Below, in pieces: positions 3,238-47,004 of a DNA stretch of 64,000 nucleotides (position 1 is its first letter; each line of letters begins with the position of its first letter). This DNA comes from Minisyncoccota bacterium. GTDB lineage: Bacteria; Patescibacteriota; Minisyncoccia; Phycocordibacterales; DATDWN01. A program made the translations under genes and the position numbers. A model generated the notes under the pieces. The model ran no database searches and was not told where the DNA came from. It saw only the letters and a list, made by a program, of their open reading frames with translations. The stretch spans positions 17,120-81,119 of the forward strand of contig JBAZZC010000002.1 of NCBI GenBank assembly GCA_041658985.1, read 5' to 3'.

Positions 3238-3408
3238 AATGGAAAAAGTCTGGATTTTTAAAACAATTTTTATAATCTCTACTGATTCTGGGTTAAAAAT
3301 AAAAAAGAAAGATAGAAATAAATTTAAAATATTGTTTGGGGTTGGTGGTGAAAACCATTGACATAGTTAGTATTTGTGATATCATTAAGAAAGAAATGGA
3401 GGGAAACC

Positions 3409-3648
3409 ATGGGCCTGACTTTTTCGGGTAATTGGAACAATCACGTTTTGGCGATGGAAGAGTGTTGTGCTGGTCGTGGGAGAATGGAGATCACTCTCTC
3501 CGACGACCAGGAGCGAAAGCTCCAAAACGGCGGACTTGTCTCCCTGAAGGAGCGAGTCTCGCCGAGTCTCGCAGAGTGTCTCTCCGTCCGTCCCCATTGG
3601 CTCTCCGCGCCAGCGGCGCTCGTGGTTGATGCGACGAAGTCGCGCTGA
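3409..3648 (+). CDS. GC-rich small protein, cassette copy 1 (about 80 aa); paralog of 3861..4034.
   Basis: GGAGGG SD 5 nt before the ATG. About 60% GC in a 33% GC context. Followed by its own terminator. The MEITLSDDQERKLQNGGLVSLKERVSPSLAECL segment aligns with MEIDIPTKEYRRLLDGGLDRLKRKCSPNLASRLL of the paralog. Confidence 0.45.
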   Translation: MGLTFSGNWNNHVLAMEECCAGRGRMEITLSDDQERKLQNGGLVSLKERVSPSLAECLSVRPHWLSAPAALVVDATKSR

Positions 3649-3688
3649 CCATAAGCACCTCGCACCTCGCACCTCGTACCTTCCCGAA

Positions 3689-3722
3689 GCCGCACCTCTG
3701 CACAGGTGCGGCTTTATTCTTT
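3689..3722 (+). terminator. Intrinsic terminator: GCCGCACCU-cugcac-AGGUGCGGC followed by UUUAUUCUUU.
   Basis: Perfect 9-bp GC stem plus a T-rich tail. Confidence 0.75.
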
Positions 3723-3860
3723 GAACATAAAAACTTATTGAAATAGATCATAAATGTGTTAAGGTACAAAGCGGAGGGCAAAACATTGCCAAACTAAAAG
3801 TTCTCTGGGGATTGGGACAGACTCATCCCTGTCATGGAGGAGTACGCAAACTCCAACAGG

Positions 3861-4034
3861 ATGATGGAAATTGATATTCCAACTAAGGAATATCGGCGAC
3901 TTCTCGACGGCGGGCTAGATAGGCTGAAGAGAAAGTGCTCGCCGAATCTGGCTTCTCGCCTGCTTTTGCAAGAGGCGTTTGTAGAGGCCAGTCCGTCTCT
4001 CCTAATCTTTCACAAACCACTGCCGACGAGGTAG
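3861..4034 (+). CDS. GC-rich small protein, cassette copy 2 (possibly RHH-like: short strand then helices); the leader ORF is frameshifted relative to copy 1.
   Basis: MMEIDIPTKEYRRLLDGGLDRLKRK... About 55% GC. It has its own terminator with the same stem as copy 1. Confidence 0.4.
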   Translation: MMEIDIPTKEYRRLLDGGLDRLKRKCSPNLASRLLLQEAFVEASPSLLIFHKPLPTR

Positions 4035-4043
4035 TCTTAAGGA

Positions 4044-4075
4044 GCCGCACCCGTGGAGAGGTGCGGCTTTGTTCG
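4044..4075 (+). terminator. Intrinsic terminator: GCCGCACC-cguggaga-GGUGCGGC followed by UUUGUUCG.
   Basis: 8-bp perfect stem; same stem sequence as the terminator at 3689. Confidence 0.7.
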
Positions 4076-4125
4076 TTGAAGATAAAATTAAGGATGTTAT
4101 AATTATTGTATTATTAATTAGCTTC

Positions 4126-4237
4126 ATCCAGGCACTAACTTAGTGAGATGATAACATTTCTGCTAATCATGATTGTACATCGATGAACACGTGTTAACTT
4201 TTTATATAAGTTGTACTCATTAAGTTAGTGCCTGGAT
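4126..4237 (+). repeat. Family A palindromic leader element, divergent copy A1. Terminal inverted repeats atccaggcactaacttagtgag / ctcattaagttagtgcctggat. It ends 9 nt before the ATG at 4247.
   Basis: 21-nt inverted arms with 1 mismatch. Confidence 0.6.
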
Positions 4238-4246
4238 AAATTTATT

Positions 4247-4618: not shown

Positions 4619-4747
4619 ACGAGAAAATGTCAAAATAAAGCCAAAACAGTGTGGGGTTGTGACCTTGCATTGTTTTGTGTCTTAATGGTGTGGATAGTTT
4701 ACGGGTAATTACAAATGTTATATAATACATATATTAATATTAAATTA

Positions 4748-4884
4748 ATCCGCACACTAACATTGGTATTGTGTCTTCCGTTGCTACTGTAAGTTATCAA
4801 AGCAGAGTGATGGAAGATAAGGTAGTATAGATACTAAATCTAAACCAGACACAATTGCAACGATACCAATGTTAGTGTGCGGAT
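4748..4884 (+). repeat. Family A element A2: terminal inverted repeats ATCCGCACACTAACATTGGTAT / ATACCAATGTTAGTGTGCGGAT, with internal paired boxes tgtgtct/agacaca and cgttgc/gcaacg.
   Basis: 22-bp perfect terminal inverted repeats. It ends 10 nt before the ATG at 4895. Confidence 0.7.
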
Positions 4885-4894
4885 AAATAAAAAT

Positions 4895-5080: not shown

Positions 5081-5173
5081 AGACCGCTTTGTTTCTTGTG
5101 AGTAAAAAATGAATATGATAGAATACCTTAGACCTTAATTTTACTTGAAATAAGGAAAATTATTATTAACTTC

Positions 5174-5309
5174 ATCCGCACACTAACATTGGTATTGTGT
5201 CTCCTGTTGCTACTGTGAGTTATCAAACAGAGTAGTAGAAGATAAAAAGGTGTAGATACTAAACCTAAACCAGACACAATTGCAACGATACCAATGTTAG
5301 TGTGCGGAT
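5174..5309 (+). repeat. Family A element A3, near-identical to A2.
   Basis: Same terminal inverted repeats and internal boxes. It ends 15 nt before the ATG at 5325. Confidence 0.7.
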
Positions 5310-5324
5310 AAAAAAGATAAAGAT

Positions 5325-20021: not shown

Positions 20022-20090
20022 TCATAAATCTTTTTTTTCATCACAATCTTTTCAGAGCAACCTTAAGAAATTCCAGCGAATTTCTTAAGG

Positions 20091-20173
20091 CCAGTCCTCA
20101 CCCTCTAGCTGTCAAGAGCCCTCGCTTCGCTCAGGTCTATGACAGCACCATGCTAGAGGGTTGCGGGGTCTCT
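20091..20173 (+). repeat. Conserved ~85-nt stem-loop element, copy 1: outer stem ccctctagc/gctagaggg, inner stem TGTCA/TGACA around AGAGCCCTCGCTTCGCTCAGGTCTA, then ttgcggggtctc. Preceded by a 12-bp hairpin at 20061-20090.
   Basis: Aligns along its full length with the copies at 35396 and 39691; the outer stems covary. Confidence 0.65.
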
Positions 20174-20208
20174 GAAAAAATTATGATTCAACAAGATTTA
20201 TTCTTTGT

Positions 20209-22513: not shown

Positions 22514-23122
22514 ATGTCTCTTTCTACCGAACAAAAATTTGAAAAGATGAAGGAAATTCGCGACGAGCTTTTACATTTTAAAAAATCACCTTTATACACA
22601 TATAGATTAGAAAATAAATATTTTCCTGTGGTGGGAGAGGGAAGTCACAACGCTCGCATTATGTTTATTGGTGAAGCACCGGGAGAAAATGAAGCAAAAA
22701 CAGCTAGACCTTTTTGTGGAAGGTCTGGAAAAGTGCTTGATGAGATGTTAGAGTCAATAAATTTGAATAGAAGTGATGTTTACATAACAAATATAGTAAA
22801 GGACCGTCCACCAGAAAATCGTGACCCAAGTCCAAAAGAAATAAAACTATATGCACCTTTCCTCAATAAACAAATAGAGATAATACAGCCTCGGGTTATC
22901 GCGACTTTGGGTAGATTTTCTATGGTTTATATTTTAGAACTTTTAAAATGTAAAACCCCCATTCTTTCAATTGGGGAAATGCACGGCAAAGAATTTACTG
23001 GTCAGGCTTCTTTTGGCTTGGTAACTGTGGTACCTTTGTATCACCCCGCTGTGGCTTTATATAACGGCAGTAATAAGGGTACGTTACTAGAAGATTTTCA
23101 GATATTAAAGAAATATGTCTAG
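22514..23122 (+). CDS. Uracil-DNA glycosylase, family 4.
   Basis: MFIGEAPGENEAKTARPFCGRSGKVLD...HPA. Confidence 0.8.
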   Translation: MSLSTEQKFEKMKEIRDELLHFKKSPLYTYRLENKYFPVVGEGSHNARIMFIGEAPGENEAKTARPFCGRSGKVLDEMLESINLNRSDVYITNIVKDRPPENRDPSPKEIKLYAPFLNKQIEIIQPRVIATLGRFSMVYILELLKCKTPILSIGEMHGKEFTGQASFGLVTVVPLYHPAVALYNGSNKGTLLEDFQILKKYV

Positions 23123-28514: not shown

Positions 28515-28535
28515 GGCACTTTGTGAACACATTTT

Positions 28536-28669
28536 ATCCGCACACTAACTTTAGTATTATCTCTCCGGTTGCTTCTATGGTTGGTTAGATAAAGTAACAG
28601 TAAAAAATAAGTGTGAATAGTAAATCTGTGTTTGACATAATGCAACGATATTAAAGTTAGTGTGCGGAT
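28536..28669 (+). repeat. Family A element A4 (variant arms ATCCGCACACTAACTTTAGTAT / ATATTAAAGTTAGTGTGCGGAT).
   Basis: Terminal inverted repeats with compensating changes on both arms relative to A2/A3. Confidence 0.65.
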
Positions 28670-28711
28670 GAATTTGCATAAACAAACTCATTTACGTTAC
28701 AATAAGGAGGA

Positions 28712-30758: not shown

Positions 30759-30799
30759 CGAAATAGCCAATGTTCTGCTACTATGTAGCTCGTTGATTA

Positions 30800-30937
30800 A
30801 TCCGAACACCAACTTTAGTATTGTGTCTTCCGTTGCTTCTTTTTATAAGTAATTAGCGGATTCAGTCAAGGTATAGATTTGGTTAGTAAATCTATATTTT
30901 GGACACAGTGCAACGATACTAAAGTTGGTGTTCGGAT
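30800..30937 (+). repeat. Family A element A5 (variant arms ATCCGAACACCAACTTTAGTAT / ATACTAAAGTTGGTGTTCGGAT); ends 9 nt before the infA ATG.
   Basis: Terminal inverted repeats with double compensatory changes. Confidence 0.65.
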
Positions 30938-30946
30938 AAAATTGTA

Positions 30947-34801: not shown

Positions 34802-35200
34802 ATGGAAAAAAATTTAGAAAAATATATAGAGGCAGTAGGAAGGAGAAAAACTTCTGTTTCTCGTGTTCGTATTACACCAGCTTCCAAAATAACATTTTTA
34901 GTTAATGATAAAGAATTAGAAAAATATTTTTCAACAAAAGAGATGCAGGCTATTGTTAAACAGCCACTTGTAGATGTAAAGGAAAAATTTAAAATTACTG
35001 CAAAAATAAAGGGTGGGGGAATACATTCACAAGCGGAAAGTTTGAGACATGGAATTGCTCGGGCTCTTGTAAAAAATGACTTAGAACTTAGAAAAGGACT
35101 AAAAAAAGCTGGATTTTTAAAGCGAGACCCTCGTTCAAAAGAAAGACGAAAATTCGGATTGAAGAAAGCAAGAAAAGCCCCTCAATGGTCTAAGCGTTAA
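34802..35200 (+). CDS. rpsI: Ribosomal protein S9.
   Basis: ...GGGIHSQAESLRHGIARAL....RDPRSKERRKFGLKKARKAPQWSKR. Confidence 0.9.
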   Translation: MEKNLEKYIEAVGRRKTSVSRVRITPASKITFLVNDKELEKYFSTKEMQAIVKQPLVDVKEKFKITAKIKGGGIHSQAESLRHGIARALVKNDLELRKGLKKAGFLKRDPRSKERRKFGLKKARKAPQWSKR

Positions 35201-35395
35201 TATTAGATATACTCAATATATTGAACTTTTGTGTATACGCGTTAGCTTTTCGCAGTCCCGTACTGAGCTTTGCTCTAGTACTGGGACAAGCAAGGCTCCT
35301 CAGTGGTCAAAACGTTAGTTTTCTTTTTCACAAAATCTCTTTCTCGTCATATCTTTTGAGAGACCGCTCATCCGCCCCTGCCGGCGGATTTGCTT

Positions 35396-35476
35396 AATCC
35401 TCGGCCATGACTTGTCAAGAGCCTTCGCTTCACTCAGGTCTATGACAAGACCATGCTCATGGCCTGCGGAGTCTCC
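35396..35476 (+). repeat. Conserved ~85-nt stem-loop element, copy 2 (outer stem ggccatga/tcatggcc; inner stem CTTGTCA/TGACAAG).
   Basis: Aligns with the copies at 20091 and 39691. Confidence 0.65.
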
Positions 35477-35506
35477 CAAAAGATACGACTTCGACGAGAT
35501 TTTGTT

Positions 35507-35528
35507 TTGCTACGATATATCGTAGCAA
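35507..35528. repeat. 22-bp perfect palindrome TTGCTACGATAT|ATCGTAGCAA.
   Basis: Read directly. Confidence 0.7.
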
Positions 35529-35587
35529 ATTAAGAAGTCTGTAGTTAAGCATGTAATTACTTATATCATATGTCATAACCGATATAT

Positions 35588-35615
35588 AATTTGGTACAAT
35601 ATATTGTACCAAATT
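35588..35615. repeat. 28-bp perfect palindrome AATTTGGTACAATA|TATTGTACCAAATT; a second copy lies at 36116-36143.
   Basis: Read directly; central ATAT. Confidence 0.75.
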
Positions 35616-35642
35616 AACAATAAGGTTAAGATAATTTAGAAT

Positions 35643-35673
35643 AGGAAAACCGCCAGTCGTGCTGGGCTGGCGG
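35643..35673 (-). terminator. Minus-strand intrinsic terminator CCGCCAG-cccagcacga-CUGGCGG followed by UUUUCC, serving the small ORF 35704..35955.
   Basis: 7-bp GC stem plus a T-run on the minus strand; near-identical copy at 36172-36204. Confidence 0.6.
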
Positions 35674-35703
35674 AATTCCGCACAGCGCCACGATGGCGGT
35701 GTG

Positions 35704-35955
35704 TTACTGTTCAAAAACAATTGAACCGTTGCCCCATTCCATTCTTGACCAGCCTGCGGCCAAGTAACGAGAGGTTAGCTTACGCTCCATCTCTGCACCT
35801 GGCCTCTTACGCTGGAATGTTAGGGCGATTGTTCTGTCGTGAGCGAAATCATTTCGGGCTACCCTAAGAGCCTCGTCAATGATACGTTCCCAACCCAGCT
35901 CCTCTAAGAGTTGGCTTGGTAGAGTGGAAAATAGTCGACTTGGGCCTACTGCCAT
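35704..35955 (-). CDS. GC-rich small protein, cassette II copy 1 (83 aa; C-terminal ...YLAAGWSRMEWGNGSIVFEQ).
   Basis: SD AGGAAAGAAGGTG then ATG; about 55% GC; own terminator; paralog at 36235..36474. Confidence 0.45.
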   Translation of the reverse strand: MAVGPSRLFSTLPSQLLEELGWERIIDEALRVARNDFAHDRTIALTFQRKRPGAEMERKLTSRYLAAGWSRMEWGNGSIVFEQ

Positions 35956-36115
35956 TACACACCTTCTTTCCTCATATAAAATATCATTTTCAAATCCATT
36001 GTCAACTAATTTTGAGTATTTAAAATTTCATATTAAACCATATTTCAATCTATGTTATAGCATAGATTATACAATCTACCACATTATAAGTAGTGAATTT
36101 AATTTAGTTGGATAT

Positions 36116-36143
36116 AATTTGGTACAGTATATTGTACCAAATT
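36116..36143. repeat. Second copy of the 28-bp palindrome (AATTTGGTACAGTATATTGTACCAAATT, 1 mismatch).
   Basis: Read directly. Confidence 0.75.
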
Positions 36144-36171
36144 GAAATCATATATAAATAATTTTGGCATA

Positions 36172-36204
36172 GGAAAAACCGCCAGTCGTGCTGGGCTGGC
36201 GGAA
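36172..36204 (-). terminator. Minus-strand intrinsic terminator, duplicate of the one at 35643-35673.
   Basis: Same CCGCCAG...CUGGCGG stem plus T-run. Confidence 0.6.
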
Positions 36205-36234
36205 TTCCGCACAGCGCCACGATGGCGGTTGTTG

Positions 36235-36474
36235 TCACTTGCTGAAGATGAGAGTTCCGTGATGACGGGTGACATTTGACCAACCCGTCGCTCTGTAACG
36301 GCGAATCAGTTCAGTGGTCACTCTTTGAGACGTGATCTGTCCCACGTGAACCTCGTACTGCTTGTTGTTCAAACCAAAACTGAGCATAAGTGCCCTGTCG
36401 ATCTCAGCCTCGATTTGATTGACTTCGAGCGTTTCCTCGGACGTCAATTCAAGATCCTTCGGTCCCAGTGCCAT
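36235..36474 (-). CDS. GC-rich small protein, cassette II copy 2 (79 aa; C-terminal ...RRYRATGWSNVTRHHGTLIFSK).
   Basis: TTGTTATAAT -10 box and AAGAAGGAGGTG SD before the ATG. Shares its C-terminal GW...(I/L)(V/I)F motif with the 35704 paralog. Confidence 0.45.
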   Translation of the reverse strand: MALGPKDLELTSEETLEVNQIEAEIDRALMLSFGLNNKQYEVHVGQITSQRVTTELIRRYRATGWSNVTRHHGTLIFSK

Positions 36475-36660
36475 GTGGCACCTCCTTCTTGTTGAATTAT
36501 AACATAGTTAGATTGTCTCGTCAAATAGTTTTGAAACTTCAAAAATTTATGTTAAAATAGCGTTATTATTTGAGTTTTGTTTGAAAATTTAGTAATTGGT
36601 TATTGTTTAGAAATTAGGTCAATTAGAAATTAGAAATTTGACTCTAAAATAAAGTAAAAC

Positions 36661-37257
36661 ATGGATACTAATGATGATAATGACAAAAAAATAGACCCCG
36701 AAGTAGAAATAGATACCGACCCTGGGGATGATGTGGTGTTTGAGGATAACACAGAAGTCACAGGGGCAGATTACAAGGCCAAAACAGACAAACTTCGTGC
36801 AAAAATAAAGGAATTAGAGAAGAAGAACGCAGAACTTTTGGATGGTTGGCAGAGAGATAAGGCAGATTTCATTAACGCCAGAAAAAGAGATGAGGAGCAG
36901 AAAATGGAGTTTTTGAAGTTCTCAAAAGCAGATATTATTGCTGAACTTCTTGCAGTTTTGGATTCATTTGAATCAGCTTTCAAAAATAAAGAGGCCTGGG
37001 AAAAAGCAGATAAAAACTGGAGAATGGGGGTTGAATACATTCACACACAGCTTATGAATATAATGACCCAAAACGGTTTAGCTGTTATAAATCCGATTGG
37101 AGAAAGGTACGACCACAACAGAGATGAGGCAGTAGAAACGGTAAAAGTTGACGACGAAAAAGATAATGATAAAATATTGGATGTGGTGCGAGTCGGATAT
37201 GAATTACACGGGAAAGAAATACGTGCACCAAAAGTTCGTGTTGGGCATTATTCGTAG
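36661..37257 (+). CDS. grpE: Nucleotide exchange factor GrpE.
   Basis: Coiled-coil N-terminus then ADFINARKR...AELLAVLDSFE...VGY.L.G.EIRAPKV. Confidence 0.85.
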   Translation: MDTNDDNDKKIDPEVEIDTDPGDDVVFEDNTEVTGADYKAKTDKLRAKIKELEKKNAELLDGWQRDKADFINARKRDEEQKMEFLKFSKADIIAELLAVLDSFESAFKNKEAWEKADKNWRMGVEYIHTQLMNIMTQNGLAVINPIGERYDHNRDEAVETVKVDDEKDNDKILDVVRVGYELHGKEIRAPKVRVGHYS

Positions 37258-39635: not shown

Positions 39636-39690
39636 TTTTTAAATAATAACTCCTCAAAAACACTCGGCTTCTTCCTGCGGAAGCCTCGTT

Positions 39691-39775
39691 CAGTCCTCGA
39701 CCCCTCGTTGTCAAGAGCCTTCACTTCGTTCAGGTCTATGACAACACCAAGCTCGGGGTCTGCGGATGTTTCTCG
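39691..39775 (+). repeat. Conserved ~85-nt stem-loop element, copy 3 (outer stem gacccc/ggggtc; inner stem GTTGTCA/TGACAAC).
   Basis: Aligns with the copies at 20091 and 35396. Confidence 0.65.
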
Positions 39776-39825
39776 GGGGTATTATTCTAAAAACTATTTT
39801 AGAGAGTGAGAAATGATAAATACGC

Positions 39826-39870
39826 AAAAACCCACCAACGAAAGTAGACTAGTGCGTCCGATCCCAGATG
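39826..39870 (-). terminator. Minus-strand terminator (degenerate copy of the CCCACCAAC...GUUGGUGGG UUUUUGCG hairpin).
   Basis: One of three near-identical about 45-nt sequences (39826, 40113, 40462), each after a small minus-strand ORF. Confidence 0.5.
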
Positions 39871-39877
39871 ATGGGTG

Positions 39878-40048
39878 TTACAGATGTTTCTTTTGGAAGA
39901 GTGTCCAAGCCTCAACAAACTCCTGTTCAGTCAGGTGACTGTTCACCATTCTGAAGTTCGCCTTTATGCTTCGATTGATCTCTGACCAAATAAAGCGACA
40001 GACGATGGTTACTCCCATGAAAAATAGTCCGAGCATGAACCATTCCAC
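39878..40048 (-). CDS. Small single-TM protein, about 56 aa; cassette III copy a.
   Basis: AGGAGG SD about 6 nt before a GTG start; hydrophobic N-terminus; own terminator. Confidence 0.35.
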   Translation of the reverse strand: MEWFMLGLFFMGVTIVCRFIWSEINRSIKANFRMVNSHLTEQEFVEAWTLFQKKHL

Positions 40049-40112
40049 GATATTACCTCCTCTTAGGATAATAAAATATATTGATAATATAGCCAAGTGC
40101 AATAATTAAAAA

Positions 40113-40165
40113 AACGCAAAAACCCACCAACGAAAGTGGACTAGTGCGTCCAGTGCTGGTGGGGC
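40113..40165 (-). terminator. Minus-strand intrinsic terminator CCCCACCAGC...GUUGGUGGG followed by UUUUUGCG.
   Basis: 9-bp stem (1 G:U) plus T5. Confidence 0.65.
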
Positions 40166-40169
40166 AGTT

Positions 40170-40409
40170 TCAGGACTTGGGAAGATTGCGGATGTTGCAG
40201 GTTGTATATCCCATCACAATCTCAGCCTTGTACAGGTCATCTCGCTTTTTGAGTTGCCAGATCTTTGCTCCCAAATGGATCCACCCAAGATCGAATAGAT
40301 GTTTCTCAGCGCTGACGATACTCCTGAGACGCCCGCAATCACGAAGGTGAACGAAAATGAGACCATTGTACCTGCTTACTCGAATTGTCCAAAACCAATT
40401 ATGTGGCAT
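40170..40409 (-). CDS. GC-rich small protein, 79 aa; cassette III copy b (contains the FWTIRVS motif).
   Basis: ACCAGGAGGACAGTTCC then ATG; paralog of 40517..40792. Confidence 0.45.
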   Translation of the reverse strand: MPHNWFWTIRVSRYNGLIFVHLRDCGRLRSIVSAEKHLFDLGWIHLGAKIWQLKKRDDLYKAEIVMGYTTCNIRNLPKS

Positions 40410-40461
40410 GGAACTGTCCTCCTGGTACTGATAATACATTAGAAATAATGAATGTCAATTA

Positions 40462-40510
40462 CGCAAAAACCCACCAACGAAAGTGGACATTTGCGTCCGT
40501 GTTGGTGGGG
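40462..40510 (-). terminator. Minus-strand intrinsic terminator CCCCACCAAC-loop-GUUGGUGGG followed by UUUUUGCG.
   Basis: Perfect 9-10-bp stem plus T5. Confidence 0.7.
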
Positions 40511-40516
40511 TATGAT

Positions 40517-40792
40517 TCAAGCCACTTGCTTTGGGAGTTCAGAGATGTCGAGTTGATGTCGAACCTCGATAAGGATAGCACTATACACGATGCTACCGAT
40601 TTCGAGTCGCCACGGCCTCAGGACTGGTTTATTAGTGTACACACCATCAGCTTTCTGCCAGCCGTTGGTCTTTAGAAGATTTGTGGCTGAATCAAGATGG
40701 TTTTCGTCAAACAACCCGAAATCTCCATGTCGATAACGCAGACTACCCGTTATCATCGACACACGAATTGTGTAAAACTTCGTGGCTTTCAT
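40517..40792 (-). CDS. GC-rich small protein, 91 aa; cassette III copy c (contains the FYTIRVS motif).
   Basis: GGAGG SD 7 nt before the ATG. Aligns with the 40170 paralog at F.TIRVS....G....H..D.G and a GW motif. Confidence 0.45.
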   Translation of the reverse strand: MKATKFYTIRVSMITGSLRYRHGDFGLFDENHLDSATNLLKTNGWQKADGVYTNKPVLRPWRLEIGSIVYSAILIEVRHQLDISELPKQVA

Positions 40793-41008
40793 AGAATGGC
40801 CTCCAACTGGAAATCATATCAGATAATTGTTGAATGTCAAGTATACTTATCATAAAAAAATCATATAATAAGCACTACAATAGAACTTTCAGATTTAAGC
40901 CAAGATCAAGGCGGGATGAGAAAATGTGAGGAGCCTTACTTGTCGTAAGGTGACGAGAATTTTTGAAATTCCAACGCAGATATTGGCCAAATGTGGAAGT
41001 TATAACAT

Positions 41009-45926: not shown

Positions 45927-46367
45927 TTGTTTATGGTTTTATCGTCTGTCACAGGCGTTACCAGTCCAGTTACGGTCACAGAGGCTCCAAAAGTGGAAAC
46001 TAGTGCCGTAAAGGAGATATCAAGAAAGGAAGTTGAAAACATAATGAGTACCGAACAATACATTAAACAGTATTTCTCGGATATTCCAATTATGATTCAA
46101 ATTGCCAAGTGTGAATCGAGGTTTAGACAACTCGATTCAGATGGAGATATTCATAGAGGAGTAAATAAAGCTGATGTGGGTGTAATGCAGATAAACGAGC
46201 GTTACCACCTAGACCAGTCAGTAAAGAAAGACTACAATATCTACACCATTGAGGGTAATACCGCTTATGCCCGTGACTTATATGAAAGACAGGGCACACA
46301 GCCTTGGGCGTCATCAAAGGCATGTTGGGGTAAGTATGAGAATAAGGACCTAGCAATAAACAAATAA
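45927..46367 (+). CDS. Secreted transglycosylase-like (Rpf/SLT-like lysozyme fold) protein.
   Basis: IAKCESRFRQLD...GVMQINERYH resembles the catalytic Glu region and the G.MQ motif of lytic transglycosylase-like domains. Confidence 0.4.
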   Translation: MFMVLSSVTGVTSPVTVTEAPKVETSAVKEISRKEVENIMSTEQYIKQYFSDIPIMIQIAKCESRFRQLDSDGDIHRGVNKADVGVMQINERYHLDQSVKKDYNIYTIEGNTAYARDLYERQGTQPWASSKACWGKYENKDLAINK

Positions 46368-46392
46368 TTGTAAAAACAAATTTTACACACGG

Positions 46393-46417
46393 ACCCCTGG
46401 AAACAGGGGTTTTGTGT
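46393..46417 (+). terminator. Intrinsic terminator ACCCCUG-gaaa-CAGGGGU followed by UUUGUGUUG.
   Basis: 7-bp stem plus T-run. Confidence 0.65.
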
Positions 46418-46497
46418 TGTCTAAAAATTTTTAATAGTTTTTATTTTATTGTCTATTTGTAGAGGGGAGTAGTATAAGAGCACGTCGCACAATATAT

Positions 46498-46668
46498 CTT
46501 TAGTGTGTCCTCCTTGAGGGCACACTAAAGATGAATACATTTTACAAACACGGCGCAAAGCTTGTGTCGTAAAATGTATTCTCCCCCATCTACCATTAAA
46601 AAGATTCAACCTGACGCATTATAGGAGGTCGATTCTCGCCTCTTCGGCGAGTCCGTCGTTGAGACGGA
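46498..46668. other. Cluster of four consecutive strong hairpins (10-bp, 13-bp, 5-bp, 6-bp stems) in a convergent intergenic region; candidate structured ncRNA or stacked terminators.
   Basis: CTTTAGTGTG...CACACTAAAG; GAATACATTTTAC...GTAAAATGTATTC; TCGCC-tcttc-GGCGA; TCCGTC-gttga-GACGGA. Confidence 0.3.
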
Positions 46669-46765
46669 TTTAGTATCCAAAAAAATAATTTTACTAGGGG
46701 ATTGGTTATAATCAAAAAACATCCTAAAAATAGGATAACTCCCCTACTCGCACATCATTGTCTTA

Positions 46766-46987
46766 TTAGAAGGTTGGAGCTTTATTAACTATCAAATTTC
46801 TTATTACATCATCCAGCCAATTGTAAAGAATTTTGAAAAATGTTATTGCTGGTTGAATTATTTCTTGGGCCTTAGGTGACCTTAGCCATTCCAATAGGTC
46901 AAAATGCAAAAAATATTTTAAAGCTATTACCGCAATTATTAATAAAATTATTCTTCCTATAAAACCTTTATTGTTAGTTAAATTCAT
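46766..46987 (-). CDS. Small membrane protein, 73 aa.
   Basis: Single TM helix. Confidence 0.4.
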   Translation of the reverse strand: MNLTNNKGFIGRIILLIIAVIALKYFLHFDLLEWLRSPKAQEIIQPAITFFKILYNWLDDVIRNLIVNKAPTF

Positions 46988-47004
46988 ATGGCTATATTAT
47001 AAAG

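Follow-up and report, generated by a model that had tools for sequence, protein, structure and literature searches.

The DNA targets of TrpR-family proteins are palindromes of about 20 bp, and their consensus depends on the lineage (PMC9413887). In Escherichia coli, the small all-alpha dimeric protein TrpR (PF01371), which carries a helix-turn-helix (HTH) motif, reads dyad operators of about 20 bp with one GTAC in each arm (TGTAcTnGTnnACnAgTACA) at trp, aroH and its own gene trpR. The HisR regulon of the Firmicutes (YerC in Bacillus subtilis), known mainly from comparative genomics, has the consensus cacTTTAnnnnnnTAAAgtg, and hisR genes are often autoregulated (PMC9413887). Here we analyse a 64,000-nt stretch of contig JBAZZC010000002.1 from a Minisyncoccota bacterium (hereafter the window; 35.7% G+C overall), and in particular three palindromes that we consider to be predicted operators of a TrpR-like protein conserved in Paceibacterota. 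To our knowledge, bacteria of the candidate phyla radiation (CPR, Patescibacteria), to which this organism belongs, encode very few transcription factors, and their regulation is almost unknown.

The palindromes lie in the 1.46-kb spacer between rpsI (34802-35200, +) and grpE (36661-37257, +), the latter being followed by dnaK and dnaJ. A sequence-only reading of this DNA had placed a 28-bp palindrome at 35588-35615 and, with one mismatch, at 36116-36143, as well as a perfect 22-bp palindrome at 35507-35528. All coordinates and sequences proved exact, and the 22-mer is unique in the window, the chance expectation being none. Together with a weaker fourth palindrome, the sites are as follows.

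35507-35528, no strand: pal2, a 22-bp perfect palindrome TTGCTACGATATATCGTAGCAA, with symmetry perfect to 24 bp over 35506-35529
35588-35615, no strand: pal1a, a 28-bp perfect palindrome AATTTGGTACAATATATTGTACCAAATT, with symmetry perfect to 30 bp over 35587-35616
36047-36068, no strand: pal4, a weaker 22-bp palindrome AATCTATGTTATAGCATAGATT with 1 mismatch, between pal1b and the promoter of cassette A (described below)
36116-36143, no strand: pal1b, the second copy of the 28-mer, with 1 mismatch (G at 36127) and the centre GTATAT

No further copy of the 28-mer was found in the 64-kb window at up to three mismatches, nor did any appear in 100 shuffles. Seven loci in the 64 kb contain inverted repeats whose arms are perfect over 10 nt or more and whose loop does not exceed 8 nt, against 0-2 per shuffle, and pal1a, pal1b and pal2 are three of these seven. 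The two pal1 copies are identical at 27 of 28 positions although the adjoining 30-nt spacer has diverged, which suggests a constraint on the site itself. Moreover, the 28-mer and the 22-mer both fit the consensus TTTGSTACRATATAYGTASCAAA, in which a half-site TTTGSTACR flanks an ATAT or GTAT centre, and thus form one motif class and not two unrelated palindromes. The outer arms of pal4 are similar to sites AATCTATACCAGTATACTGTGATAGATT from another genome (L065); it has no score against the matrix described below, its membership in the class is uncertain, and it is possibly a degenerate site.

The evidence that carries the operator assignment comes from other Paceibacterota genomes. Two loci reached through pal1 (L040 and L051) contain a 134-aa Trp_repressor gene with a palindrome 20-24 nt upstream of its start codon and a second copy past its stop codon, both built on the same 24-bp core as pal1a. 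Six further homologues of this gene (L065, L067, L069, L071, L072 and L073) were fetched from unrelated contigs and not through the palindrome, and they too are bracketed by palindromes, which brings the association to eight of eight loci. The upstream copy is a palindrome of 20-38 bp located 20-25 nt before the ATG in seven of the eight and about 45 nt before it in L065; the downstream copy lies 0-19 nt past the stop codon in all eight, and every site has an RTATAY centre. Upstream and downstream copies are near-identical within a genome, while the arms differ between lineages.

L067 and L069: arms TTTGCTACGATATATCGTAGTAGA, essentially the 22-mer of the window (pal2)
L071 and L073: arms AATTTACTACRATATACTGTAGTAAATT
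L072: arms ATATTTCACAGCGATATATCGCTGTGAAATAT
L065: arms AATCTATACCAGTATACTGTGATAGATT

The most divergent recognition helix (STSTITMIS, in protein P0115) is paired with the most divergent arms (TTCACAGCG...), and the neighbourhood of the TrpR-like gene is conserved among lineages.

A position weight matrix (PWM) was derived from 15 sites of six loci, none of them found via pal1, with 20 shuffles as control. Its three best matches in the 64 kb are pal2 (32.5 bits), pal1b (18.7 bits) and pal1a (18.6 bits); the next-best match in the window reaches 12.1 bits, and the maximum over the 20 shuffles is 14.8 bits. Over 464 kb of fetched loci the matrix matched regulator-flanking sites and pal1 loci only, and no extra copy of the motif was found within the 5-6 kb around each regulator gene beyond those flanking the gene. 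The sequence-only reading had offered the operator of a dimeric HTH protein as an alternative to a recombination site. It is this alternative that gains support, both from the bracketing of a TrpR-family HTH gene in all eight loci and from the matrix of independent sites, which has no significant match in the window other than these palindromes.

The TrpR-like protein comprises about 135 aa and has an additional helix at its N-terminus and a basic tail at its C-terminus. It scores 41 bits against the Pfam Trp_repressor model (cut-off 27) and falls below the NCBIfam cut-offs both for TrpR proper and for YerC/YecD (18.7 bits against 42.2 for YerC/YecD), which points to a separate subfamily; the Joint Genome Institute (JGI) labels some of the CPR homologues 'YerC'. 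A profile search with the protein matches PDB entry 3frw. The AlphaFold model is of modest quality (predicted local distance difference test, pLDDT, 62), as expected for the monomer of an intertwined dimer, and its best structural matches are E. coli TrpR, the best of all, and HisR-like structures (probability ~1.0, target template modelling (TM) score 0.55-0.77).

The regulator gene carries a site of its own, as trpR does in E. coli. The two systems differ in the spacing of the GTAC elements (N10 in E. coli, N8 in the CPR motif), in the palindromes themselves, which in CPR are perfect over 24-38 bp with a conserved RTATAY centre and a second copy past the stop codon, and in the genes concerned, tryptophan genes not being involved at the CPR loci. 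HisR/YerC is alike in being a TrpR-family regulator with lineage-specific 20-bp palindromic motifs and frequent autoregulation, but its consensus is cacTTTAnnnnnnTAAAgtg as opposed to TTTGSTACRATATAYGTASCAAA here, and the CPR neighbours are not histidine genes. Full-text literature searches for the palindrome sequence and for a CPR Trp repressor returned nothing relevant, and the motif would be an operator type not described before, belonging to a branch of the TrpR family that is specific to CPR.

We thus put at roughly 0.6 the probability that pal1a, pal1b and pal2 are operators of this dimeric HTH protein of about 135 aa from the TrpR superfamily. That the protein binds, which regulator acts in this genome and what the sites do locally are what we infer from the sequence associations. 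One HTH of the dimer would read each TTTGSTACR half-site across the ATAT or GTAT centre, much as TrpR and HisR do on palindromes of 20 bp. The regulator's own gene has the upstream copy across its -10/start region, which suggests autorepression; most lineages have TGnTACRAT within the arms, and L072 has a TTGACA promoter immediately upstream of the palindrome. The copy past the stop codon, as well as the copies beyond the cassette terminators of the window, may serve as a bound-protein barrier or as a looping partner. Such a barrier or a regulatory point is the most likely local role here: it would limit the transcription that leaves the cassettes, foreign-looking mini-genes with strong promoters, and enters the ribosomal-protein operon in antisense, or it would control weak extended -10-like promoters (TGGTACAAT, TGCTACGAT) inside the palindromes. 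Template-switch 'correction' of quasi-palindromes is a known mutational process, and the long palindromy could be due either to this process or to hairpins or cruciforms being selected for. A transcription-factor binding site is an ordinary kind of feature and not a new recombination system; the linkage of a conserved TrpR-like protein with a palindromic motif that co-varies by lineage around its own gene provides a testable regulator-operator pair in uncultivated bacteria.

Several observations weigh against the operator assignment. The TrpR-like gene was not found in the 64-kb window, and no protein-coding gene has a promoter that overlaps one of the three window sites: pal1b lies some 110 nt upstream of the -35 element of cassette A, while pal1a and pal2 face no gene. 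A palindromy of 28-38 bp exceeds the need of a TrpR-type dimer, and the outer arms remain complementary while changing between loci, which suggests a hairpin/cruciform or mutational component. The copy past the stop codon of the regulator, sometimes located between convergent genes (L067), is not accounted for by simple promoter repression, and the motif is unlike the published TrpR and HisR consensus sequences. The sites seem to have arisen by insertion and not by descent, which simple operator function does not explain. In addition, L051 contains a 139-aa cassette exactly between two copies of a palindrome unit of about 35 bp where L040 has a single pal1; this layout mirrors the order pal1b-cassette A-pal1a of the window and is a point in favour of the recombination reading discussed below. 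A remnant of the TrpR-like gene between pal1a and pal1b was not found even at E = 50. The gene of uracil-DNA glycosylase (UDG), which neighbours the regulator gene in L065, was tried as a pointer to it and rejected, as the UDG gene of the window (22514-23122) adjoins a membrane-protein open reading frame (ORF) instead.

Two small cassettes share the spacer with the palindromes.

35646-35700, minus strand: cassette A terminator module, a long, imperfect hairpin rich in GC with a T-run behind it, with homologues in L074, L075 and L076
35704-35955, minus strand: cassette A ORF, 83 aa, 50% GC, from an orphan small-protein family
35978-36005, minus strand: cassette A promoter-like site, TTGACA-16-TATTTT, TG-extended, with a Shine-Dalgarno (SD) sequence AAGGTG at 35960-35965
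36175-36229, minus strand: cassette B terminator module, a GC-rich hairpin with a T-run behind it, matching the module of cassette A at 55/55 positions
36235-36474, minus strand: cassette B ORF, 79 aa, 50% GC, a paralogue of the cassette A ORF with 30% identity
36496-36524, minus strand: cassette B promoter-like site, TTGACG-17-TATAAT (11/12), TG-extended, with an SD sequence GGAGG at 36480-36484

The sequence-only reading had described a minus-strand unit of SD, ORF and terminator, present twice. Both units are indeed complete and each has a promoter-like site as well. The 28-mer does follow each of them in the order claimed, at 30 and 31 nt from the terminator module and not at about 25 nt. 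The cassette ORF family is real, with 10 further members of about 80 aa in a search of 1.8 billion representatives, and has no match in Pfam, PHROGs or PDB sequences; an AlphaFold model (pLDDT 80.6) gave weak Smr/S8-like fold matches only. With 50% G+C in a 36% genome and strong SD sequences, the cassette ORFs are unlike the host genes rpsI and grpE.

Comparison with three relatives (L074, L075 and L076; GrpE 79-90% identical), in which the rpsI-grpE-dnaK-dnaJ synteny is kept, separates the palindromes from the cassettes. Each of their spacers contains a single minus-strand slot with a homologous terminator module (ACCGCCATCGTGGC...ACGAYTGGCGGTTTTYCCTAT). In L074 and L076 the slot has a TTGACT promoter and encodes, respectively, a membrane protein of about 79 aa and a Cys-rich protein of 120 aa; in L075 the ORF has been lost and a degenerate terminator is left. 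The palindromes are absent from all three spacers (0/3), and none lies upstream of grpE. Since the relatives keep the terminator without the palindrome, the latter is not part of the cassette, whose conserved 3' element is the terminator; only this genome has gained the palindromes. Such palindromes are likewise absent from the two other cassette arrays of the window, I (3376-4090) and III (39812-40800). The cassette ORF varies among the three relatives, and no palindromes bound it. Most likely, then, the palindromes do not delimit the neighbouring gene cassettes as recombination sites.

The expression slot before grpE (35640-36530 in the window, 4566-4945 in L074, 4476-4960 in L076 and 634-700 in L075) keeps its promoter, SD sequence and terminator across relatives, while the orphan ORF differs from genome to genome, occurs twice here and has been deleted from L075. 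The rpsI-grpE spacer is in this sense a place at which close relatives exchange orphan mini-genes that look foreign and are self-expressing, which bears on how ultra-small genomes gain novelty. Arrays I (plus strand) and III (minus strand) are also composed of small G+C-rich genes, each with a promoter, an SD sequence and a conserved terminator that is specific to the array. The first consists of two paralogues, the second of which is frameshifted, and the other, between dnaK and dnaJ, of ORFs of 74, 89 and 91 aa where the public record calls no gene.

At its left side pal2 abuts the right end of a G+C-rich structured element of about 175 nt (35330-35506), with terminal inverted repeats of about 35 nt (CAAAATCTC...GAGATTTTG). 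This element recurs at about 20040-20200 and 39650-39800 in the window, at 7055-7200 in L006, at 4365-4545 in L074 and in other Paceibacterota, always past the 3' end of a plus-strand gene followed by a variable hairpin. Its RNA fold reaches -73.9 kcal/mol (z = -8.2) and it has no Rfam match; it is either similar to a miniature inverted-repeat transposable element (MITE) or an unknown structured RNA. Next to it, at 35177-35317, the last eight codons of rpsI (KAPQWSKR and stop) are present twice with synonymous differences, before and after an insert of about 90 nt that bears a hairpin and is shared with L075 (470-610). This looks like an element that inserted at the 3' end of rpsI and brought a replacement gene end.

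Beyond the regulator genes, the 24-bp core of pal1 (TTTGGTACANTATANTGTACCAAA) was also found in other CPR metagenome-assembled genomes by a scan of species-representative genomes, and a metagenome scan with a free 6-nt centre yielded 58 loci. When the loci of both scans are tallied together, an RTATAY centre is present in 23 of 69 site occurrences; the conservation of this centre suggests that these 23 are the true family, the remainder resembling chance matches or other elements. In one genome (L003/L004) two copies 3139 bp apart bracket rplS, an AI-2E transporter gene and an UPF0047 gene, and a third copy elsewhere makes a total of three copies on two contigs. Another copy separates a 2-hydroxyacid dehydrogenase gene from rplY (L006), another occupies the 36-nt gap between msrA and msrB (L064), and others are close to recA and efp, the recA gene of L053 having its site 345 nt downstream. 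The sites are intergenic in all loci and stand among such housekeeping genes (rplS, rplY, msrA/msrB, recA, efp). No match to the pal1 palindrome was found in viral contigs. In other Paceibacterota genomes (L005 2330-2520, L006 6925-7040, L013 660-790 and L053 565-700), two to four perfect palindromes that differ from one another but share this design, with the cores ACGATATATCGT, CCAGTATACTGG and ACAGTATACTGT, were also noticed as clusters within 100-200 bp, and the cluster of L005 adjoins another G+C-rich cassette.

The palindromes could instead be selfish or structural hairpins (3'-end stabilisers, weak terminators or cruciforms) with the TrpR-like protein as their mobilisation or maintenance factor. 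In such a case they would be comparable with repetitive extragenic palindromic (REP) sequences and REP-associated tyrosine transposases (RAYTs), where the gene is flanked on both sides by the same palindrome and more intergenic copies exist, often just past genes. Several features speak for this view: the regulator gene flanked by its own palindromes together with dispersed 'orphan' copies, the outer arms that covary and extend perfect stems to 28-38 bp, the frequent position 0-10 nt past stop codons (twice in L004, and in L064), the presence of sites here and their absence from close relatives, which implies gain by insertion, the stable RNA hairpins predicted for the palindromes, and the weak HTH similarity of one homologue to an IS630 transposase. 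RAYTs, however, are HUH transposases (IS200/IS605-like) with tens to hundreds of copies of their palindrome, whereas the protein here is an HTH fold only, with no HUH or DDE catalytic domain, and copies are few, with one locus in 64 kb and only the flanking copies within 5-6 kb of the regulator genes. Moreover, the gene neighbourhood is conserved among lineages, so that the regulator gene itself is not mobile, and in contrast to REP sequences the palindromes here are perfect with a zero-length loop. We regard this explanation as unlikely. As for termination, the palindromes are A+T-rich and have no T-run behind them, and they were rejected as intrinsic terminators, a description that the separate 55-nt modules do fit.

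A further view keeps the TrpR-like protein and makes of the unit of about 35 bp a portable bound site, co-duplicated or co-inserted with the GC-rich mini-genes and acting as a junction where Paceibacterota genomes would gain, lose or swap cassettes, or as a roadblock that insulates core operons. In L051 as well as here, a cassette has the unit at either end; two of the relatives fill the same slot with cassettes that have no such unit. If true, it would mean a cassette-handling system independent of integrases, but we hold it to be distinctly unlikely.

The sites may also be read as bidirectional promoters, in which an extended -10 element borne by each arm (TGGTACAAT or TGCTACGAT) would drive divergent transcripts, including antisense RNAs to the cassettes. 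TGn-TAcaAT is matched on both strands of pal1 and pal2; a promoter scan places a -10 element TACAAT inside pal1b and a promoter TTAACA-17-TAGAAT that starts at the edge of pal1a; and the distance of 20-25 nt to the ATG of the regulator in seven of eight loci is that expected for a -10/start position. Some members are nevertheless without a -10-like hexamer (L072, TTCACAGCGATAT), this locus having a separate TTGACA promoter just upstream, other copies are found between convergent genes or directly past stop codons, and the scan is consensus-only. As the primary function of the sites it is very unlikely, although it is compatible with the operator reading and does not exclude it.

A reading in which a site-specific recombinase, either a small serine enzyme or a Xer/dif-like one with 11-6-11 geometry, would use the palindromes for crossover, and in which ORF and palindrome form a mobile cassette comparable with integron cassettes or with pdif of Acinetobacter, is the least probable of these and in our opinion highly improbable. 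The small serine recombinase geometry that was claimed does exist (14 + 14 bp around AT), as geometry only, and half-sites of 13-14 bp around AT or the 11-6-11 arrangement suit both enzyme types. In addition, the 28-mers equal the cassettes in number here, the 139-aa cassette of L051 lies exactly between two pal1 copies where L040 has one, cassette ORFs vary between related genomes, and a probable replication terminus is about 10 kb away. Against this, the three rpsI-grpE relatives are without the palindrome, two of them with a cassette that has the homologous terminator; two copies in one genome flank rplS and other housekeeping genes, with a third elsewhere; no recombinase gene adjoins about 15 distinct loci (among called genes and ORFs, only part of which were scanned against Pfam); arrays I and III are palindrome-free; attC-type R/L boxes are absent; and the sites consistently bracket an HTH regulator gene. 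The idea towards which the sequence-only reading leaned, of ORF and 3' palindrome as a gene cassette with its recombination site, is not supported in view of the relatives without palindrome, the copies around rplS and the lack of an adjoining recombinase. The sites are furthermore linked, by sequence association, to a predicted operator-binding regulator, a finding on which the sequence-only reading had itself made recombination depend, and on which it fails.

The serine recombinase gene that this reading had pointed to at the start of the window is real (ORF 76-1473, with large serine recombinase domains), but it is of the large type, it is the sole recombinase of the window, and it lies 34 kb away beside a tRNA gene; no small resolvase or invertase is located within the palindrome locus. 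The ORF (feature 76-1484; Resolvase, Recombinase and Zn_ribbon_recom domains) has its N-terminus cut by the window edge and overlaps a minus-strand tRNA-Ala at its 3' end, an arrangement typical of an integrative element and unrelated to the palindromes. Beside the sites no tyrosine integrase was seen, the loci examined showed no link to a Xer gene, and the palindrome ends have no visible GTTRRRY boxes in their sequence.

The more specific identities of this kind were rejected in turn. An integron cassette with attC was discarded for want of GTTRRRY boxes, and because the cassettes have their own promoter and SD sequence. The pdif modules of Acinetobacter plasmids, the integrative mobile elements exploiting Xer (IMEX) and Xer/dif share a 28-bp site of 11-6-11 geometry that punctuates short gene modules, and the unit of about 35 bp duplicated on both cassette sides in L051 and in this window is alike in this respect. 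The sites described here differ in being perfectly symmetric, placed among essential genes, absent from relatives with the same slot and arranged around an HTH gene. A dif/Xer site is at odds with several copies per genome among essential genes and with relatives that have no site, despite the 11-6-11 geometry and a nearby turn of the GC skew, and a pdif module is at odds with two copies here and three on two contigs elsewhere, loci I and III and the relatives having none. The cumulative GC skew peaks at about 46000-47000, where the gene orientation changes from plus (left) to minus (right), which indicates converging forks and thus a probable replication terminus.

The remaining candidates are dismissed briefly: a CIRCE/HrcA operator (CIRCE, controlling inverted repeat of chaperone expression) of grpE-dnaK, as there is no CIRCE at up to three mismatches and no palindrome upstream of grpE in the relatives; an NrdR or LexA box, which the sites resemble, as no nrd or SOS context was seen and the recA site of L053 is 345 nt downstream and not upstream of the gene; a known RNA, as Rfam gave sub-threshold chance matches only; and a phage origin, in view of the viral contigs without a match.

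Two other features of the window were noticed. Intergenic elements of about 150 nt, bounded by the inverted repeats ATCCGCACACTAAC...GTTAGTGTGCGGAT, are present at 4733-4888, 5159-5313, 28521-28673 and 30785-30941 (also 4118-4240) and are MITE-like or structured RNAs. A leader-like sequence CAGATTT..GGCGG..GAGAAAA..GTGA upstream of dnaJ (40870-40950), which has no Rfam match at the gathering threshold, may be a cis-regulatory RNA and is found again in a Zambryskibacteria contig (L005 3040-3130).

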